Virus record (IMG/VR): IMGVR_UViG_3300033153_009093
Coordinates: 96,001-160,000 of that record
Length of the DNA stretch: 64,000 bases
Direction: 5' to 3' (one strand)
Source of the DNA: a virus
Part shown: piece by piece, positions 12,714 to 59,083 of the stretch
How positions within the stretch are numbered: position 1 is the first letter of the stretch
Layout: each line of letters opens with the position of its first letter
Made by a program: the position numbers and the translations under genes
Notes under the pieces: model-generated
The model's input: only the letters and a program-made list of their open reading frames with translations
Databases searched by the model: none
What the model was told of the DNA's origin: nothing

Positions 12714-12787
12714 TGGACTCGGTTAAGAGAATCGAACTCCTATACACAGATTTAGAGTCTGTTATCTTGCCATTAGATCAAACCGAG
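12714..12787 (-). tRNA. tRNA with anticodon CUA (reads UAG); inferred tRNA-Trp(CUA)
   Basis: CTCGGTT TG ATCT AATGGCA AGAT A ACAGA CT-CTA-AA TCTGT GTAT AGGAG TTCGATT CTCTT AACCGAG T CCA. All four stems pair, with a GG D-loop, TTCGA T-loop and encoded CCA. The amino-acid identity is inferred. Confidence 0.95.
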
Positions 12788-12839: not shown

Positions 12840-13379
12840 TTATGCATATTGCCAAGTTAATTTTAATTTTTTGTCACTAGGATGTTTCCCGGCAGATTCT
12901 CTTTTTCCTCTACAACATTCGGAAATGTGTTGATGTCTTGTATTTGCATGATTACCAGCTTTTCTTAATGAAAGAAACATAGAATTTAATTCAGGACAAT
13001 AGACTTTTTTTCTAGGTTTATTATGTAATCCATTTTCAAAAGCATGATCGCTATTTTCTTGATTAGTCATCCATTCCAAATCTTTCCAATAGTTATTTAA
13101 CTTATTACCATACTTATGATTTACTTGTGGTTTATTTTTAAAATTATCAACGAAATGAATAGCAACTAATCTATGAATAACATACGACTTCCCTTTTCCA
13201 TTATTACTAAACCATACATTAGCATATTTATTTCTAAAAGATGTTTTTAAAATAACACCTTCGGGGTATCTATGAAAACTTTTAACATTTCCCCATGATG
13301 ATATTTGATACAACCCTTCGTATCCTTTTACATCCTTCCACGTTTCAGACTCTCTATTTTTTATTTTTGTATCTGGCAT
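12840..13379 (-). CDS. NUMOD4-HNH homing endonuclease
   Basis: ETWKDVKGYEGLYQISSWGNVKS (NUMOD4), HRLVAIHF, VNHKYGNKLNN (HNH-like, with the usual HKDG Asp changed to Tyr). Confidence 0.85.
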   Translation of the reverse strand: MPDTKIKNRESETWKDVKGYEGLYQISSWGNVKSFHRYPEGVILKTSFRNKYANVWFSNNGKGKSYVIHRLVAIHFVDNFKNKPQVNHKYGNKLNNYWKDLEWMTNQENSDHAFENGLHNKPRKKVYCPELNSMFLSLRKAGNHANTRHQHISECCRGKRESAGKHPSDKKLKLTWQYA

Positions 13380-26519: not shown

Positions 26520-27851
26520 ATGAAAAAGTGTATAAAAAATTATTCTATAAACATATCATCATCTAATTATAATAAATTAACCAATTATTTATTATACTAT
26601 AATAAGTGTAAAAATTTATTTTATAATAAATATTAGAATGATATCGGTACAATATATTTACCATATAAATATGAACTACGAGATACATTAGTTTCAAATA
26701 TAAAAAATAATGATTTGAATATTAATGAATTGGATTTATTAAAAAGCGTTCCCGCTAAATTATAGAAAAACGCATTAACTGAATCTATAACTAATTTAAA
26801 ATCTAATTAGTCTAATACAAAAAATAGAATTAGACAAAAAATAAAAAAGAACAAAAATTTTTCTGAAAAAGATACTCATTATTTATATTATGTACTTAAA
26901 TCAAATAACATATTACATAATATAAATAATGGAGATTTGAATATAACCTTAGAAAAATTTGATGTAAATTATAAAAAACTTAATTCATATTTATATCGAC
27001 AAATAAAAAAAGAAAAAAGAAAACCTTATTCTAAAAGTAATAGTTATATTATAGATAGTAGCTCGCAAATATTATACAAACAAATAGATAATAATTTAAT
27101 TTGTTTCCTATCAACATTAAAAAAACGAGAAAGGATTTTAATCCGTTTATCAAATAGTATAAAATATAAAGGCGATATTCGTATAGTATTAAAAAATAAT
27201 AAAATGGAACTACATAAAGTTATTAATATTAAACCTCAATTAAATAACAACAATTCTATTACTGGAATTTATATTGATTTTAATAATTTATTCACAACCC
27301 AAAATAATATTTATGGTAAAAATTTCGATAAACTATTAAAAAAATTTGCACATATTATTCACTGTAAATCAAATAAAAGGGAAATCCTTAAATCAATGAA
27401 TAATATACTAATACAAAAAAATAACTTAGGTACAAAAAAATAGCACAGTAAAAAAAGAAAATTTATTAATGAATTAAATTCCTTTATAAATTTGAATTTG
27501 AATTTATTAATTAAAGAAGAGCGGCCTAAAACTATTATTATAAAAAAAATAAATAAATATTTATTATATAATAATAGAGATAATTTATTTAATATTCCAA
27601 ACCATCATTTATAGATCTTAAATAATTATATAATAAATTACATTTATAAACGATTAGAATACAAAACACAATTAAATCAAATTAATATAATATTAGATAG
27701 TTCAAATTATACAATCAAAGTATGTAATAATTGTAAAAGTAGAAATACTATTATTACAAAAGGGTACTTTAAATGTAATAATTGCATGGTTAGTATAACT
27801 AAAACATCTAATACAATAAACAATATGATTGAGCATCACGGTGTTAATTAA
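26520..27851 (+). CDS. tnpB: TnpB-like (IS200/IS605 OrfB) protein with all three RuvC acidic residues apparently lost (443 aa); 5 in-frame TAG
   Basis: PAKL*KNALTESITNLKSN*SN, GDIRIVL, GIYIDFNNLF, NNLGTKK*, KRLEYK, CNNC..CNNC zinc finger. TAG at 26634, 26763, 26808, 27441 and 27612. Confidence 0.75.
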
Positions 27852-27961: not shown

Positions 27962-27992
27962 ACCGGAGAAGATTTTCTTCTCCGGTTTTTTT
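27962..27992 (+). terminator. Rho-independent terminator ending the tnpB-like transcript
   Basis: 11-bp stem ACCGGAGAAGA/TCTTCTCCGGT, TTT loop, followed by a T run. Confidence 0.85.
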
Positions 27993-28443
27993 ATAGATAC
28001 TTTTCAATTTTTTTATTAGTACTTTCATGTAAAATCATATCACTTTTATTTTTATTAAAATATGATTTTGGTGTGCCTTCAAATTTTCTCGACATTCCCC
28101 TCTAATCGGCAATCATTTGAAGTATGTATTTTTTTGGCATTTCAATAGGAATTATTTCATTTTTCCTTGTTACAGATACCTAGTAATTCTAATGATGTTT
28201 ATTTCTTTTTTGATGTTTATTCTACCCTTGTTGAAATAATTTATCGTTTCCATCAGATTTACAATAATTATTTAAGCTATCTTTCTTTTCAAAAAAGATA
28301 GCAGATGGTATAAATTCGGATGGTAAAAATTTTGATAAGTCATGAGTAATTGCATGATAATATAGTCCCATGTTGATACATTCTATTCCTACATTCTTTT
28401 TATGCTCAATAATATATTTAAAATATTTCTAATATTTATTCAT
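27991..28443 (-). CDS. DUF5662-like HD-related phage protein (150 aa) missed by the ORF track; 5 in-frame TAG, all at conserved Trp positions
   Basis: MNKY*KYF..HK..HDLSKF.PSEF..QG*NKHQKRNKHH*NY*V..EMP.KY..QMIAD*RG. TAG at 28429, 28222, 28189, 28180 and 28102. Confidence 0.85.
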
Positions 28444-36850: not shown

Positions 36851-38086
36851 TTATGTCAATGTTTCAAGAATATAATTTTTAAAATTATCAACAATTTGTT
36901 TTTTAACTGTAATATTCCATTCATTACAACAGCACGGAGCATAATCTTTATATCTCATATCATAGTCTTCAGATTCATGTAACGATTTTTGAAAATCGCA
37001 AATATCGTCCGCCTTCTTTACATGAATAAAACAAGGAGAAGTTGGACAATCGGATTTTATGTTTAAAGATTTTGTATATTTATAATATTTAGTTCTGCAT
37101 TCATATGGAAATGGGCCGTATAACCCAATAGCAGGCTTTTCAATACCTTCACGAAAATGAAATAGTGCAGTATCAACACTAATACAAAGAGTAGCATCAT
37201 ATGCATCAAGAAAAAATTCATCAAGATTTTTAGCTGCTATAATTTTAATTCTGTCATCTTTTAAATTATTAATATAATTTATATCTTCGATTCTTAAATT
37301 CAATTCATGGATATATATATTTACATCCTTATTATTAATACATTCAATTACGGATTCATAAATATCCTGAAATCTCATAGACCTAATTATAGCAGTAGAT
37401 CTAGGATTAATTAAAATACTAGGTTTATCAGAATCTATATTAGATTTATTATTATTTATTCTTGCTGTTTTTAATTGAGGTCTTCCCCATTCAAAGTCAA
37501 ACTCATCAATCCCGATAGTTTTATATTGTAATTCATACCAATTATCTTTACTATTTTCAATAACACCTTCATAATAAATAGTCTTATACCTACTATTTAC
37601 TCGTTTTTTTTCTAAAGAGTTATTACTTTTATATCTTACAATTGGCGAAAAATAAGATATAAATGTCACTGGTTCTCGATACCATTTAAACACGCTTCTA
37701 TATTTTTCTTGAGAAATGAATTTTAAATTTTTAGATTTCTTATTTAAAAATTGTACTATATTCATTGAAATAGAAGATAAAGCGATTAAATCGCCTATGC
37801 CTCCGGTTCTTAATATAATAGGAAATACCATTTTATTTTCTTTTGTAAAATCTAATTTATCTATAACATCGTCAATATTTTTTTCATATTTAACAATTTT
37901 ATTATAAATATTTTTTACTTGAGATGCTATCATATGTCTATCAGAAGTTCTAATAACTTCTATTAACCTTTCTTTAAATGTTAACCATATAGTATCAGCG
38001 AATAAATACATATGTTTAGGTTGTATTTTTATATCATTATCATTAATATTGATAGAAATACTTTTTTTAAATTCAACAATTTTCAT
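36851..38086 (-). CDS. Glycosyltransferase family 9-like (heptosyltransferase-like)
   Basis: RTGGIGDLI, ISVDTALFH, IGLYGP, C-terminal Cys cluster (CPTSPC). Confidence 0.7.
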   Translation of the reverse strand: MKIVEFKKSISININDNDIKIQPKHMYLFADTIWLTFKERLIEVIRTSDRHMIASQVKNIYNKIVKYEKNIDDVIDKLDFTKENKMVFPIILRTGGIGDLIALSSISMNIVQFLNKKSKNLKFISQEKYRSVFKWYREPVTFISYFSPIVRYKSNNSLEKKRVNSRYKTIYYEGVIENSKDNWYELQYKTIGIDEFDFEWGRPQLKTARINNNKSNIDSDKPSILINPRSTAIIRSMRFQDIYESVIECINNKDVNIYIHELNLRIEDINYINNLKDDRIKIIAAKNLDEFFLDAYDATLCISVDTALFHFREGIEKPAIGLYGPFPYECRTKYYKYTKSLNIKSDCPTSPCFIHVKKADDICDFQKSLHESEDYDMRYKDYAPCCCNEWNITVKKQIVDNFKNYILETLT

Positions 38087-39023
38087 TAATATTACACCTT
38101 ATATTATTTATTTTTTTTAATAGATAATTATAATTATCTATTATATTTTTTTCATTAACAATATTTAATGATATATTATCATCAAAATTATTAATATATA
38201 ACTTCATTATTTTTAATAGTTCTGTTATATTAAATTGCTTACAATTATAACAAGCATCTTCTATACAGTTTATATCATCAAAATTTATATTGAAGTATTT
38301 TATAAAATACTTCAATAAATTATTATACAAATGACATTCAGTACCAGTTTTATATTTAATGATATACTTTTTCATATTATCTATATCATCAAAATTAATA
38401 AAATTATTTAATGATTTTGACATTTTTTCTTTTTCATTGCTTCCATAAATAACATTATTAGAAATATTAATTTTTATATTTTTTATATTTAATTTTTTAT
38501 AAATATCTTTCATAATGTTAATATTTGATTTTTGATCATTTGCTAAAAAAACAGTTGTTATTTCATTATCATTATGATATAATAATACATCAAAAGTTTG
38601 TAAAACTGGATATAATAAAAATCCCAAAGATTTATTCTTACTATTTTTAAATGTAGGATTTTTTAATAATTTTGATGTATTTATTAACGGAAGATATTTA
38701 TATGTTAAAGAAGTATGATAATTATTAATGTTTTTATTATTTTGAAATATAAATAATAATTTATTAATATTATTATCAATGTTTTTATTATTATATATTA
38801 AATATGTTTTATATAATGAATAAATCTTTTTTGCTAGTAAAATAGAATTATTATTTATTTTATTAGCTGAAATATTAGATAATTCTGAATGAGTTTCAGC
38901 TAGTAAAATAAATATTTTATTAACATTTTTAAACATTATATTATCAAACATATTTAAAATTGTCATAACATGTCCAATATGTAAATTATTTCCCGTTGAT
39001 CTAATTCCAAAATATATATTCAT
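38073..39023 (-). CDS. trpS: Divergent tryptophanyl-tRNA synthetase-like protein (class Ic)
   Basis: GIRSTGNNLHIGH, YPVLQTFDVLLY, ANDQKSN, KMSKS, C-terminal C..CK; contains no TAG and no TGG. Confidence 0.8.
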   Translation of the reverse strand: MNIYFGIRSTGNNLHIGHVMTILNMFDNIMFKNVNKIFILLAETHSELSNISANKINNNSILLAKKIYSLYKTYLIYNNKNIDNNINKLLFIFQNNKNINNYHTSLTYKYLPLINTSKLLKNPTFKNSKNKSLGFLLYPVLQTFDVLLYHNDNEITTVFLANDQKSNINIMKDIYKKLNIKNIKINISNNVIYGSNEKEKMSKSLNNFINFDDIDNMKKYIIKYKTGTECHLYNNLLKYFIKYFNINFDDINCIEDACYNCKQFNITELLKIMKLYINNFDDNISLNIVNEKNIIDNYNYLLKKINNIRCNINENC

Positions 39024-39044
39024 AAATTATTCCCTTTTAAAATA

Positions 39045-39092
39045 TATTTATATATATCATATTTTTTTAAAAAAATATGATATATATAAATA
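39045..39092. promoter_or_regulatory. Perfect 48-bp palindrome at the divergent strand switch
   Basis: TATTTATATATATCATATTTTTTT|AAAAAAATATGATATATATAAATA is self-complementary; it lies between the ATGs at 39023 (-) and 39134 (+). Confidence 0.6.
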
Positions 39093-39133
39093 AATATAAG
39101 AAATAGAATTAATATTAACCAATAAAAAAATTT

Positions 39134-55877: not shown

Positions 55878-56099
55878 ATGCCTATATATGAATATGAATG
55901 TCCAGAGTGTAATACAGTCTGTGAAAAATTATTAACAATTTCTAATACTACTAACCCGAAAATGTTACACTGTGATACTTGTAAAAAAGACCAACTTATG
56001 AATAAGTGTATATCGCTATCAACATTTAAGTTAGTTGGTAGAGGGTGGGGTAAAGATGGTTACGTAGATACTTATGAACAAACAAAGGATTTAATATAA
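55878..56099 (+). CDS. FmdB-family zinc-ribbon protein
   Basis: MPIYEYECPEC...CDTC...F.LVGRGW...Y. Confidence 0.8.
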   Translation: MPIYEYECPECNTVCEKLLTISNTTNPKMLHCDTCKKDQLMNKCISLSTFKLVGRGWGKDGYVDTYEQTKDLI

Positions 56100-57103
56100 T
56101 GTCAGTAGAAATAATAACGCCAATAGTGAACGTTGTAGATTTTGATAAAATAATAAGCGAAAAAACTACTGAAACGCCCTCGGCTTATGTAATGGAATAT
56201 GTTTGTAGAGTTTGTTATAATTCATATGATAAAATTAAAGCAGATTCTTATATTAAATTATTATCTGATGCCGCTAAACGAGGGCATAGGTCTATATTTG
56301 ATTTTTCAAATGTACAATTTGTTTTTCATATAAATGATCATCAAACATTTATAAGTTTAGATCATTTTTTTGAAAGTGAAAAATATTTAAATCATGAAGC
56401 ATATACACTTAATAGTAACAGTAATGCTATAATGGTAACAGGTTCAATAAGATCATTTATTGAACTATTAGAAAGATATACTTATTTAAGTTTTGAATAT
56501 ACCTTTGTTTTTTCACAGATATTTTCCGCACTATATGATAATTACGAATATATTATAACTAATTGGCCTTCATGTCCAGAGCTTCTAAATTTTTATAACA
56601 AAATTGTAGGCGAGTGTGATTATAATGAAAGAATACTTTTTACTGATATTATAGATAAAGTAAATGTAAAGCAAGACAAAATCCACCGAAAAATTTTAGT
56701 CGAATTAACAACTGATAGAGGATTACATAATGAACTGGTTAGACATAGACCTGCTGAACATATGGCAGAGTCACAAAGGTATGTTCGATATGGTACAGAT
56801 AAAAATCCGCTAAAAATTTGCATTGATTCTAAACGGTTTTCAGATGAAGATTATGTTACGATATTAAAAGAATCTAGTGAGGTTTGTTATGGTGCTTATA
56901 AAAAGCTTTTAGACGGCAAATACGCCCCGCAAGTTGCAAGGGCGACCTTGCCTATGGGCACCGCTTTAAAGTCGTTTATATATTGCAATATGGAAGAATG
57001 GGAGCATGTCGTGAGACTTCGCTATGCGAAAGATGCTTTACCCATGGCACAGGAAGTTACTGGAGAAATATTTAAACAAATGGTAAATAAAAAATTATTT
57101 TGA
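56099..57103 (+). CDS. thyX: Flavin-dependent thymidylate synthase
   Basis: RGHRSIF, HNELVRHR...ESQRY, ARATLP, LRY...A. Confidence 0.85.
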   Translation: MSVEIITPIVNVVDFDKIISEKTTETPSAYVMEYVCRVCYNSYDKIKADSYIKLLSDAAKRGHRSIFDFSNVQFVFHINDHQTFISLDHFFESEKYLNHEAYTLNSNSNAIMVTGSIRSFIELLERYTYLSFEYTFVFSQIFSALYDNYEYIITNWPSCPELLNFYNKIVGECDYNERILFTDIIDKVNVKQDKIHRKILVELTTDRGLHNELVRHRPAEHMAESQRYVRYGTDKNPLKICIDSKRFSDEDYVTILKESSEVCYGAYKKLLDGKYAPQVARATLPMGTALKSFIYCNMEEWEHVVRLRYAKDALPMAQEVTGEIFKQMVNKKLF

Positions 57104-57104
57104 T

Positions 57105-57383
57105 ATGATTTTTAAATTTAAAGAAGATCAACAATATAGCAATGAAATTAATATTGATTTTGATGACATATCATCAAAATCAATATATTGTTTATATTAT
57201 AAACAATACAATGTTGCAGTAAATTGTATTCTGATTGAAAAATTAGATAGCATGATAGCATACGGTGATAATGAAAAAGAAGTAATTGATTATAGAAATG
57301 AACTGGTAGAAAATAAAAAATATATACCAGTTCATTTATATATTAAAAATATTCCAAATATTGTAAGTTATAAATGTCAATAA
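57105..57383 (+). CDS. Hypothetical protein
   Basis: Track ORF. Confidence 0.5.
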   Translation: MIFKFKEDQQYSNEINIDFDDISSKSIYCLYYKQYNVAVNCILIEKLDSMIAYGDNEKEVIDYRNELVENKKYIPVHLYIKNIPNIVSYKCQ

Positions 57384-59083
57384 AATCAATAAAAATAGAT
57401 AAAATAAAATTATCAAATTTTATGACCTTTAATAATTATCAAATTGATAATTTATCAAAATATAAAATAATTTTTATATGCGGTCATAATGCACAAGGTA
57501 AATCGACAATTACAAGCGAAGCCCCTTATTTTACGTTCTTTAATAAACCATTAAGATATAGCAAAATAGAAGAATTATTAGCATGGGGTTATGATCATAA
57601 TTCTAAAGATAAAGCCTTTGCAGAATTATCTTTAAATATTATAGATGATAATAATAATTCTTCAGATTTAATAATTAAAAGAAATATTATTGGTAGTCGT
57701 TATAAGTTCGATGTAAGTAATAATGATAATCATTTATATGATGATTTATATTCCGCTAAAAATATTACATCCTTTAATAATTCGTTAAAAGATTTATTAG
57801 ATATTAATGAATCTATATTTTCTATACTATATTTAAAAAGTCCCTTCAGTCAAGTTATCTTTGATAGTAATAGCGAACTACTATCAAAGATAACTAAATC
57901 GGAATATATAAATGAATTACGAAATGATTTTAGAAAAACGTGCAATGAATTAAAAATAAATATTGACAATTTAAAAGGGACTATTGAAAAGCAAAATCAA
58001 CTTACATCTTCAATAAAAAAACAACTAAATAAAATTCTTGATAACTCGGAATATCAAGAAAATAAATCAGATATAAAAAGAATAGTTTCTAGTATTGAAA
58101 AAATAGAAAATGAATTAAATCTTTTAACAGAAAAAACTAAGAAAAATAAATTAGAACATAATAAATATTCTAATAAAAAGAATGAATTAAAAGATTTAAT
58201 AAATAAAATAAATTTGTTCATTAGACAATTGGAAGAGGAAAGAAAAAAAATGCTAGACCTTATAAACAAAGGTCAGTGCTATACATGCAAGCAACCAATA
58301 GAACAAAATTTATACAATAATCAAATAGATATTATTGAAAAGAAGATAAAAGAATACAGAGATTATTTATTAAAAAATTCATCTAGTATGAAGTCTATTA
58401 GTGATATCGTTAATAGAATTTCTAATAATGTTAATACATTTCAAAACGATAAAGATTCTCTTTATCAAAATATAAGAAAATTATCTAATTTAAAAGCTTC
58501 ATTAAATCAATCAATTATTAATCATGATCAAAATAAAAAAAATAATCACGATATTTTAAAGAAAATACGAGAGACTATTATTAATTTGAATGATGAGTTA
58601 TCAATAATAAGTGCTGATTATAAAATAATCAGCGGCATTTCAAAATTATTACTGGCAAAAAATTCTGAATATATTAATGAATTTTATAATAAAAAAATTT
58701 ATAATTTTAATTTGGTTTTTAAATCTATATTAACTAAGTTGACAAATAATAAATTTAATGACGTTAAGATATTATTGAATAATAAACCTATTTTAAATGA
58801 CGGCATACAATATAAAGCATTATCAACGAGCGAGAGAAAATTTATAGATATATCATTTGTTATTGCATACATTGTATATTTATCAACAAATTTAAAATTT
58901 AAAACATTTATTTTGGATGAATTTTTTGATAATTATGATAAGAAAAATATTATTCATATTTATAATACAATGTATGAAATTGCAAAAGAGTATGATTTAC
59001 AACTACTCATAACAACAAATAAATCGGATTATTTATTTAATGAAATTGAAAAACGAGAAGATATAAAAATTATTACTTTATAA
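57374..59083 (+). CDS. SbcC/Rad50/T4 gp46-like ATPase
   Basis: NFM, GHNAQGKST, coiled coil with CYTCKQ zinc hook, LSTSER signature, LDEFF. Confidence 0.85.
   Translation: MSIKSIKIDKIKLSNFMTFNNYQIDNLSKYKIIFICGHNAQGKSTITSEAPYFTFFNKPLRYSKIEELLAWGYDHNSKDKAFAELSLNIIDDNNNSSDLIIKRNIIGSRYKFDVSNNDNHLYDDLYSAKNITSFNNSLKDLLDINESIFSILYLKSPFSQVIFDSNSELLSKITKSEYINELRNDFRKTCNELKINIDNLKGTIEKQNQLTSSIKKQLNKILDNSEYQENKSDIKRIVSSIEKIENELNLLTEKTKKNKLEHNKYSNKKNELKDLINKINLFIRQLEEERKKMLDLINKGQCYTCKQPIEQNLYNNQIDIIEKKIKEYRDYLLKNSSSMKSISDIVNRISNNVNTFQNDKDSLYQNIRKLSNLKASLNQSIINHDQNKKNNHDILKKIRETIINLNDELSIISADYKIISGISKLLLAKNSEYINEFYNKKIYNFNLVFKSILTKLTNNKFNDVKILLNNKPILNDGIQYKALSTSERKFIDISFVIAYIVYLSTNLKFKTFILDEFFDNYDKKNIIHIYNTMYEIAKEYDLQLLITTNKSDYLFNEIEKREDIKIITL

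Follow-up and report, generated by a model that had tools for sequence, protein, structure and literature searches.

Introduction

Only two reassignments of stop codons have been observed in phages, with TAG read as glutamine and TGA as tryptophan (Borges et al.), and in a screen of phage tRNAs with a CUA anticodon, glutamine was inserted by 28 of the 29 (PMC12636597). For the change of TGA to tryptophan, phage modules have been described that combine a tryptophanyl-tRNA synthetase (TrpRS), a tRNA(UCA) and release factor 1 (RF1). These include the modules of the Jade phages and the AP1 and HF2 pairs, and the AP1 pair is orthogonal in Escherichia coli (bioRxiv 10.1101/2021.08.26.457843; PMC12636597). 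The reading of TAG as tryptophan (NCBI table 32) is otherwise known, within the literature searched, from the plastids of Balanophoraceae alone and has been called exceptionally rare; phrase searches of the literature found no report of it in phages. Here we describe a 64,000-nucleotide stretch of viral DNA (the window), comprising bases 96001–160000 of the 180,374-bp virus record IMGVR_UViG_3300033153_009093 (24% G+C), which carries a gene for a divergent TrpRS and a gene for a tRNA(CUA). We consider it likely that the enzyme is an active, homodimeric TrpRS of the bacterial [4Fe-4S] type, with a specificity adapted so that it attaches tryptophan to the tRNA(CUA) of the phage itself. An earlier note, made from the letters of the window alone, had proposed tryptophan charging of this tRNA by the phage enzyme, and that predicted activity is well supported by the computational analysis given below.

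The phage of the window is referred to as G0, and two complete relatives as G1 (276 kb) and G2 (233 kb). Coordinates are those of the window unless a genome position is stated.

TAG is read as tryptophan in three phage genomes

When TAG was read through, the proportion of the G0 genome covered by open reading frames (ORFs) of at least 150 amino acids rose from 47% to 79%, with much the same result for G1 and G2. The TAG-containing ORFs have 11.2 TAG and 1.7 TGG codons per 1000, compared to 7.6 TGG codons per 1000 in the TAG-free ORFs, while the use of glutamine and tyrosine codons is alike in the two groups. The densities of TAG and TGG are negatively correlated (Spearman rho −0.42, p 1e-6), which represents a strong depletion rather than a strict exclusion. 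In the late genes, TGG has been replaced by TAG at 87% in G0 and at ~70% in G1 and G2.

The identity of the inserted amino acid was then examined by scoring alternative translations of the following gene against its Pfam family.

27991–28443, minus strand: DUF5662 gene with 5 in-frame TAG codons; Pfam scores of 114.1 bits with TAG as tryptophan, 101.6 as phenylalanine, 98.9 as tyrosine, 96.3 as leucine and 91.6 as glutamine

Tryptophan is thus ahead of phenylalanine by 12.5 bits and of glutamine by 22.5 bits. The same test was only weakly discriminating on the large terminase subunit, TerL (tryptophan 23.1, phenylalanine 22.2, tyrosine 21.9, glutamine 19.7). The TerL alignment itself is informative: at two columns where G0 has TAG, all four of the standard-code T4-like terminases have tryptophan and G1 has TGG, and at other columns TAG and TGG interchange among G0, G1 and G2. 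Across ~90–100 ortholog pairs per genome pair, the most frequent partner of TAG was TAG itself, followed by tryptophan, tyrosine and phenylalanine. This alignment pattern is that of tryptophan itself and not that of tyrosine or glutamine. Taken together, the comparisons indicate that TAG is tryptophan in G0 and in its two complete relatives, the meaning it has in NCBI table 32.

We also noted two features of the recoded genes themselves. A TnpB/Cas12f-like gene with a TNB domain (26520–27851, plus strand) has 5 in-frame TAG codons and no TGG, and is therefore a mobile-element nuclease written in the late code of the phage. At the ends of the late genes at genome ORFs 55925–58711, 72806–73945 and 81531–82064, a TAG is followed by one codon and then by TAA or TGA; TAG may once have been the stop of these genes, with the second stop as its back-up.

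The synthetase gene belongs to a distinct TrpRS family

The enzyme gene and the catalytic positions identified in it are as follows.

38073–39023, minus strand: divergent TrpRS gene, 316 amino acids, stop codon TGA, open under table 11; assigned from PF00579, profile search, Foldseek and tree
38970–38981, minus strand: HIGH motif, residues 15–18; H15, G17 and H18 invariant in 15 family members
38589–38591, minus strand: Asp145, aligned with E. coli TrpRS Asp135 as its equivalent; invariant in the family
38412–38426, minus strand: KMSKS motif, residues 200–204; K200, S202, K203 and S204 invariant in the family

The ORF matched PF00579 (tRNA-synt_1b) over residues 2–245 with an E-value of 2e-23 and a score of 83.6 bits against a cut-off of 21.1, and is therefore not a chance ORF. 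The class Ic motifs listed in the earlier note are all present (HIGH at residues 15–18, YPVLQTFD at 138–145, the GxDQ-like ANDQ at 161–164 and KMSKS at 200–204), and D163 and Q164 are invariant across the family alignment. In E. coli TrpRS, Asp135 lies on the specificity helix and makes a hydrogen bond to the indole nitrogen (PMC12135181). A count of the codons bore out the claim that the gene is free of TAG. The further claim that it has no tryptophan codon is correct (no TGG was counted) but carries little weight: the expected number is only ~2 and tryptophan is present in some relatives, so the absence is probably not meaningful and is not used here as evidence.

Searches of two very large protein collections yielded ~20 relatives that are 39–68% identical to the window protein; past these, the E-values rise abruptly from 1e-42 to 1e-7. 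The largest contigs with family members (134–276 kb) are phage, and no homologue was found among the GenBank phages searched. Close to the amino-acid pocket, the family has two additional aromatic residues, F5 and F144, in places where ordinary TrpRS have small ones (Ser8 and Ala134 in the E. coli enzyme).

To place the family between TrpRS and tyrosyl-tRNA synthetase (TyrRS), profile, structural and phylogenetic comparisons were combined, the phylogenetic one having been suggested in the earlier note. Against the PDB, the family profile matched Thermotoga maritima TrpRS (2g36) with an E-value of 3.5e-24; the other TrpRS were matched at 1e-14 or weaker and the best TyrRS at 9e-6. An AlphaFold2 model of the window protein had a mean predicted local distance difference test (pLDDT) score of 86, and 50 of its 50 top Foldseek matches were TrpRS, with 2g36 the first of them. 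In a maximum-likelihood tree, with group labels checked against NCBIfam, 20 members of the family grouped into a single clade with a support of 100, which the TrpRS/TyrRS split (support 99) placed with TrpRS. The clade has a long stem (1.18) and stands beside three odd TrpRS-like proteins of ~390 amino acids. Within the bacterial TrpRS, the enzyme is an offshoot with a long branch, and its type is that of the Thermotoga [4Fe-4S] enzyme.

Bacterial TrpRS are obligate homodimers that pair through the connective peptide 1 (CP1) region. A model with two copies of the enzyme gave an interaction prediction score from aligned errors (ipSAE) of 0.69, the best control scoring 0.00, and its interface, at residues 100–141, is in the CP1 region. 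At least 90% of contacts were shared between runs of the dimer model, which had pLDDT values of at least 83. Of 30 solved homo-pairs, 20 attained the mark used for a dimer, as did 1 of 23 single chains; the model may have passed because it resembles TrpRS dimers already solved.

A putative iron-sulfur cluster in the anticodon-binding domain

The C-terminal part of the protein contains a cysteine motif, which was located by family alignment.

38241–38348, minus strand: shortened anticodon-reading loop (from T226), then C230-x22-C253-x4-C258-x2-C261 and K262

All four cysteines and K262 are invariant across the family. The cysteines of the window protein align with Cys236, Cys259, Cys266 and Cys269 of T. 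maritima TrpRS, which are the ligands of a [4Fe-4S] cluster in the anticodon-binding domain of that enzyme (PMC2954223). Their spacing is x22/x6/x2 in most members of the family, as in the motif class C-x(21-24)-C-x6-C-x2-C, and x22/x4/x2 in the subgroup to which the window protein belongs. The window TrpRS is thus classed as a putative member of the [4Fe-4S] subgroup of T. maritima type. The strong divergence that the earlier note saw in the C-terminal region is real for the last third of the protein, yet this part can still be aligned to the anticodon-binding domain of T. maritima TrpRS.

The tRNA(CUA) is the only tRNA of the phage

12714–12787, minus strand: tRNA(CUA), 74 nt; ARAGORN, and Rfam RF00005 with 59.4 bits

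This is the sole tRNA that ARAGORN finds in the 180-kb G0 genome. It has a C1:G72 pair, U73, an encoded CCA end, the anticodon loop CU-CUA-AA and a variable loop of 4 nt. G1 and G2 have one tRNA(CUA) each, with the same C1:G72, U73, encoded CCA and anticodon loop in bodies that differ. The variable loop of the G2 tRNA is short, as in G0; the G1 tRNA (genome positions 112953–113043) has a long variable arm, giving it a type II shape. As no CCA is present in the loop of this arm and the G0 and G2 tRNAs have only short variable loops, a decoy anticodon hairpin in the variable arm is rejected for this clade. No tRNA-Trp(CCA) was found in any of the three complete genomes, even though G1 has 22 other tRNAs. 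A single class Ic synthetase is encoded in each genome, with neither a glutaminyl-tRNA synthetase (GlnRS) nor a glutamyl-tRNA synthetase (GluRS) in any of them. The matches of a blastn search with the tRNA(CUA) were confined to the anticodon arms of further phage amber suppressors and therefore gave no clue to the isotype. In three further relatives (L092, L093 and L102), no tRNA was found up to 10 kb from the enzyme gene.

Counterparts of the E. coli readers of G73 and C35 are missing from the enzyme

In the structure of E. coli TrpRS with its tRNA, Glu155 together with Gln152 reads G73, and both residues are described as strictly conserved in bacterial TrpRS. A loop of Thr225, Asp226 and Ser227, together with Lys274, reads C35 and A36; here an amino group found on C alone donates a hydrogen bond to Asp226, while Lys274 touches the O2 that is common to C and U (PMC12135181). 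The counterpart of the G73 readers in the window protein was located by alignment.

38517–38528, minus strand: residues 166–169, S-N-I-N, replacing Q152-H-L-E155 of E. coli TrpRS (the G73 readers)

The position of Glu155 is occupied by asparagine or serine in 19 of 19 family members, and that of Gln152 by serine, alanine or valine. Asp226 has been lost in 18 of the 19, being phenylalanine or tyrosine in most, with one member retaining aspartate. In the window's subgroup, the loop after the threonine is deleted and is ~11 residues shorter. The threonine itself (E. coli Thr225) and the lysine (E. coli Lys274, here K262) are retained in the family. Both Glu155 and the Thr-Asp pair are retained in 12 of 12 further phage TrpRS from IMG/VR that served as a control. 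Since the E. coli-type readers of G73 and C35 are lost here and kept by other phage TrpRS, the missing residues would be those expected to clash with a tRNA that has U73 and U35.

The nearest outgroup in the tree, the three proteins of ~390 amino acids mentioned above (P0053, P0050 and P0040), also lacks the equivalent of Glu155 and has T-Y or T-I replacing T-D. The gene for P0053 sits on a phage-like contig (L101). These enzymes may serve other suppressor tRNAs.

The tRNA differs from its standard counterparts at the same positions. With Bacillus subtilis TrpRS, the change G73U alone cuts charging 17-fold, and C35 is read by three hydrogen bonds (PMC12135181). E. coli tRNA-Trp with a CUA anticodon is no longer recognised by TrpRS and is instead taken by GlnRS (PMC2965240), for which the identity elements are U35 plus the 1-72 and 3-70 pairs and the discriminator (PMC9976931). 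In its C1:G72 and U73, the phage tRNA fits neither the bacterial tryptophan set nor the glutamine set.

A model for TAG decoding and its alternatives

From the meaning of TAG, the placement of the family, the co-occurrence of enzyme and recoding and the residue changes, we infer charging, specificity and timing as follows. The early genes, including that for TrpRS, are without TAG and encode tryptophan by TGG, so that the host code would suffice for their translation. The enzyme and the tRNA would then build up, and the TAG codons of the late (virion) genes would be read as tryptophan. Host enzymes should largely ignore the tRNA(CUA), because it lacks C35 and G73 for TrpRS and most of the acceptor-arm features needed by GlnRS. 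The phage enzyme would accept it, the glutamate that grips G73 and the aspartate loop that reads C35 being gone and the lysine that contacts the O2 of either C or U being retained. The near-complete replacement of TGG by TAG in the late genes fits AT mutation pressure in all genes that can use TAG; TGG decoding may also be blocked late.

A wider proposal, to which we would give about even chances, is that a clade of T4-like jumbo phages has a private TAG to tryptophan code served by a co-evolved, naturally orthogonal pair, in which an iron-sulfur TrpRS is blind to G73 and C35 and knows its tRNA mainly by C1:G72 and U73. In the window's subgroup, where the anticodon loop may have been lost altogether, recognition may likewise depend mainly on these acceptor-end features.

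Several observations weigh against a dedicated tryptophan pair. The window protein has no match to trpS (TIGR00233), and its best NCBIfam match is tyrS at 40.3 bits, which is below the cut-off. One relative (P0007) does match trpS, with 58.7 bits against an equivalog cut-off of 176.75. As the family falls below the trpS equivalog cut-off, this is no ordinary TrpRS. Details of the Q-x-F-D and DQ-x-x-N motifs resemble TyrRS. The assignment of residues to bases is transferred from E. coli TrpRS through an alignment of ~20% identity. Between the genes for TrpRS and the tRNA there are ~25 kb in G0 and 30–37 kb in G2 and G1, so that the two lie in separate operons. Finally, no gene with an RF-1 domain, which would be the phage's own release factor, was found in G0.

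The distance between the two genes is also what might be expected if the host TrpRS charged the tRNA(CUA) and the phage enzyme were a back-up or booster for tRNA-Trp(CCA), like the synthetases of many jumbo phages. Ordinary TrpRS genes do occur in other phages and, in the view of Borges et al., the suppressor tRNAs of phages are often charged by synthetases of the host. This division of labour nevertheless seems improbable to us: the tRNA has U73 and U35, the change G73U alone costing the B. subtilis enzyme 17-fold and C35 being read by three hydrogen bonds, E. coli TrpRS no longer recognises tRNA-Trp(CUA) (PMC2965240), and the phage enzyme is without the G73 and C35 readers that ordinary phage TrpRS retain.

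The TyrRS-like motif details and the tyrS match would instead suit an enzyme that attaches another amino acid, most plausibly tyrosine, with TAG being either ambiguous or not tryptophan at all. TAG is fairly often aligned with tyrosine, and the tRNA-Tyr of archaea and eukaryotes is marked by C1:G72. Against this, tryptophan itself aligns with tyrosine at a similar rate, TAG falls at invariant-tryptophan columns of TerL and exchanges with TGG between relatives, and the DUF5662 protein scores 15 bits better with tryptophan than with tyrosine. In fold, the protein is like TrpRS and unlike TyrRS throughout, the C-terminal domain included, and the aromatic residue two positions before the first glycine is phenylalanine in several members, suiting ring stacking and not the binding of a hydroxyl. 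We regard tyrosine charging as very unlikely. An equally faint prospect is that the protein is inactive, or is a paralogue that resembles a synthetase but acts outside translation, as the very long branch (stem 1.18) and the scores under the family cut-offs might suggest. In such a case the catalytic motifs and the four cysteines would hardly be expected to stay invariant across members that are 39–68% identical, and the gene and its neighbourhood to be retained in relatives and to co-occur with TAG to tryptophan recoding. Charging of the phage tRNA(CUA) with tryptophan by the phage enzyme is therefore the reading that we favour.

Genomic context of the enzyme and tRNA genes

The TrpRS gene lies in a run of TAG-free genes for a FEN-like nuclease, TrpRS, a GT9-like transferase, rIIA/rIIB-like proteins, dCTP deaminase, dNMP kinase and ribonucleotide reductase, and the gene order around it is retained in relatives. 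Its immediate flanks are as follows.

36851–38086, minus strand: GT9-like glycosyltransferase with a Cys-rich C-terminus; PF01075, E-value 3e-8; overlaps the TrpRS stop by 14 nt
39035–39102, no strand assigned: AT-rich palindrome, an inverted repeat with 34-nt arms, 88% complementary, with no gap and a perfect core

The GT9-like gene is also found downstream of TrpRS in the relatives L092 and L102. The palindrome is in a divergent intergenic region, ~20 nt upstream of the TrpRS start, and may be a shared control site. A promoter scan was uninformative in this DNA of 16–25% GC, giving 43 sites where 37 were expected.

Directly upstream of the tRNA(CUA) in both G1 and G2 is a gene for release factor 2 (RF2), which has the SPF motif and no TAG. 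In G0, the position directly upstream of the tRNA is taken by a NUMOD4/HNH homing-endonuclease gene (12840–13379, minus strand), with 6 TGG and no TAG codons. Outside the window, at genome positions 171981–172339 on the minus strand, there is a full-length transfer-messenger RNA (tmRNA; Rfam RF00023, 100.7 bits; ARAGORN tag ADDYAIAMAA), a ribosome-rescue RNA in this case carried by a stop-recoding phage.

The TerL of G0 is distantly T4-like, with ~26% identity to the terminases of Flavobacterium, Pelagibacter and cyanophage myoviruses. The G0 record ends in a perfect 114-bp inverted terminal repeat (IMG/VR class ITR), and G1 and G2 have direct terminal repeats; the inverted repeat could be real or an assembly artefact. 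A search for the host gave a sole match among genome contigs, to a 22-kb contig binned into a Neomarinimicrobiota metagenome-assembled genome, and no host was assigned.

Comparison with known recoding systems

The present case adds to viruses a codon meaning that, within the literature searched, has not yet been reported in phages. It also suggests how such a meaning may be enforced, with the tRNA-reading residues of the synthetase being changed in step with a new tRNA identity set, and would be a natural example of synthetase–tRNA co-evolution capturing a stop codon. The two components are a candidate amber-suppressing tryptophan pair for genetic code expansion, which, if the reading holds, would be ready for use with tryptophan analogues; the phage UGA tryptophan pair AP1 has already proved useful in this field. 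Were the enzyme largely anticodon-blind, the pair could be re-aimed at other codons.

The enzyme most closely resembles T. maritima TrpRS (2G36), which is its best match in both sequence and fold and has the four cysteines, GxRPTG and YPVLQ in common with it. The identity between the two is only ~19–20%, however, and C-x6-C is replaced by C-x4-C in the window's subgroup. Unlike the T. maritima enzyme, the family has also lost the G73-reading glutamate and the T-D-P loop, with the anticodon loop being shortened.

As a system, the closest likeness is to the Jade, AP1 and HF2 modules, which also combine a phage TrpRS and a suppressor tRNA in standard code, turn a stop codon into tryptophan in late genes and have a stop-sparing release factor. 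In those modules TGA is recoded through a UCA anticodon, C35 is retained, and the discriminator is G73 or A73. The present phages instead recode TAG by a tRNA with the anticodon CUA (with U35) and the discriminator U73; RF2 is found only in the relatives, and the genes are tens of kb apart. In terms of the code-change module of Borges et al., G0, G1 and G2 all have the tRNA(CUA) and a TrpRS gene in standard code; a release factor (in G0) and clustering in one operon are the parts that are missing.

Among amber readers, the phage tRNA resembles E. coli su+7, a tRNA-Trp with the anticodon CUA, in having a tryptophan-type loop, CU-NNN-AA. It differs in its C1:G72 and U73 and in having its own enzyme, su+7 being charged by GlnRS (PMC2965240, PMC9976931). 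The code-15 phages (crAss-like, Lak and phAss-1) likewise carry a suppressor tRNA(CUA), in some cases along with RF2, and recode TAG in their late genes; in contrast to the present case, their tRNA inserts glutamine and is thought to be charged by the host GlnRS.

The plastid code of Balanophoraceae shares with G0 the reading of TAG as tryptophan and an extremely AT-rich genome, and there it involves a CUA tRNA derived from tRNA-Trp and the loss of RF1. The setting, however, is a plant organelle, and the tRNA arose by duplication of a nuclear one, with the ordinary TrpRS of the cytosol believed to charge it. The plastid system has no dedicated synthetase, whereas the phage would bring its own.

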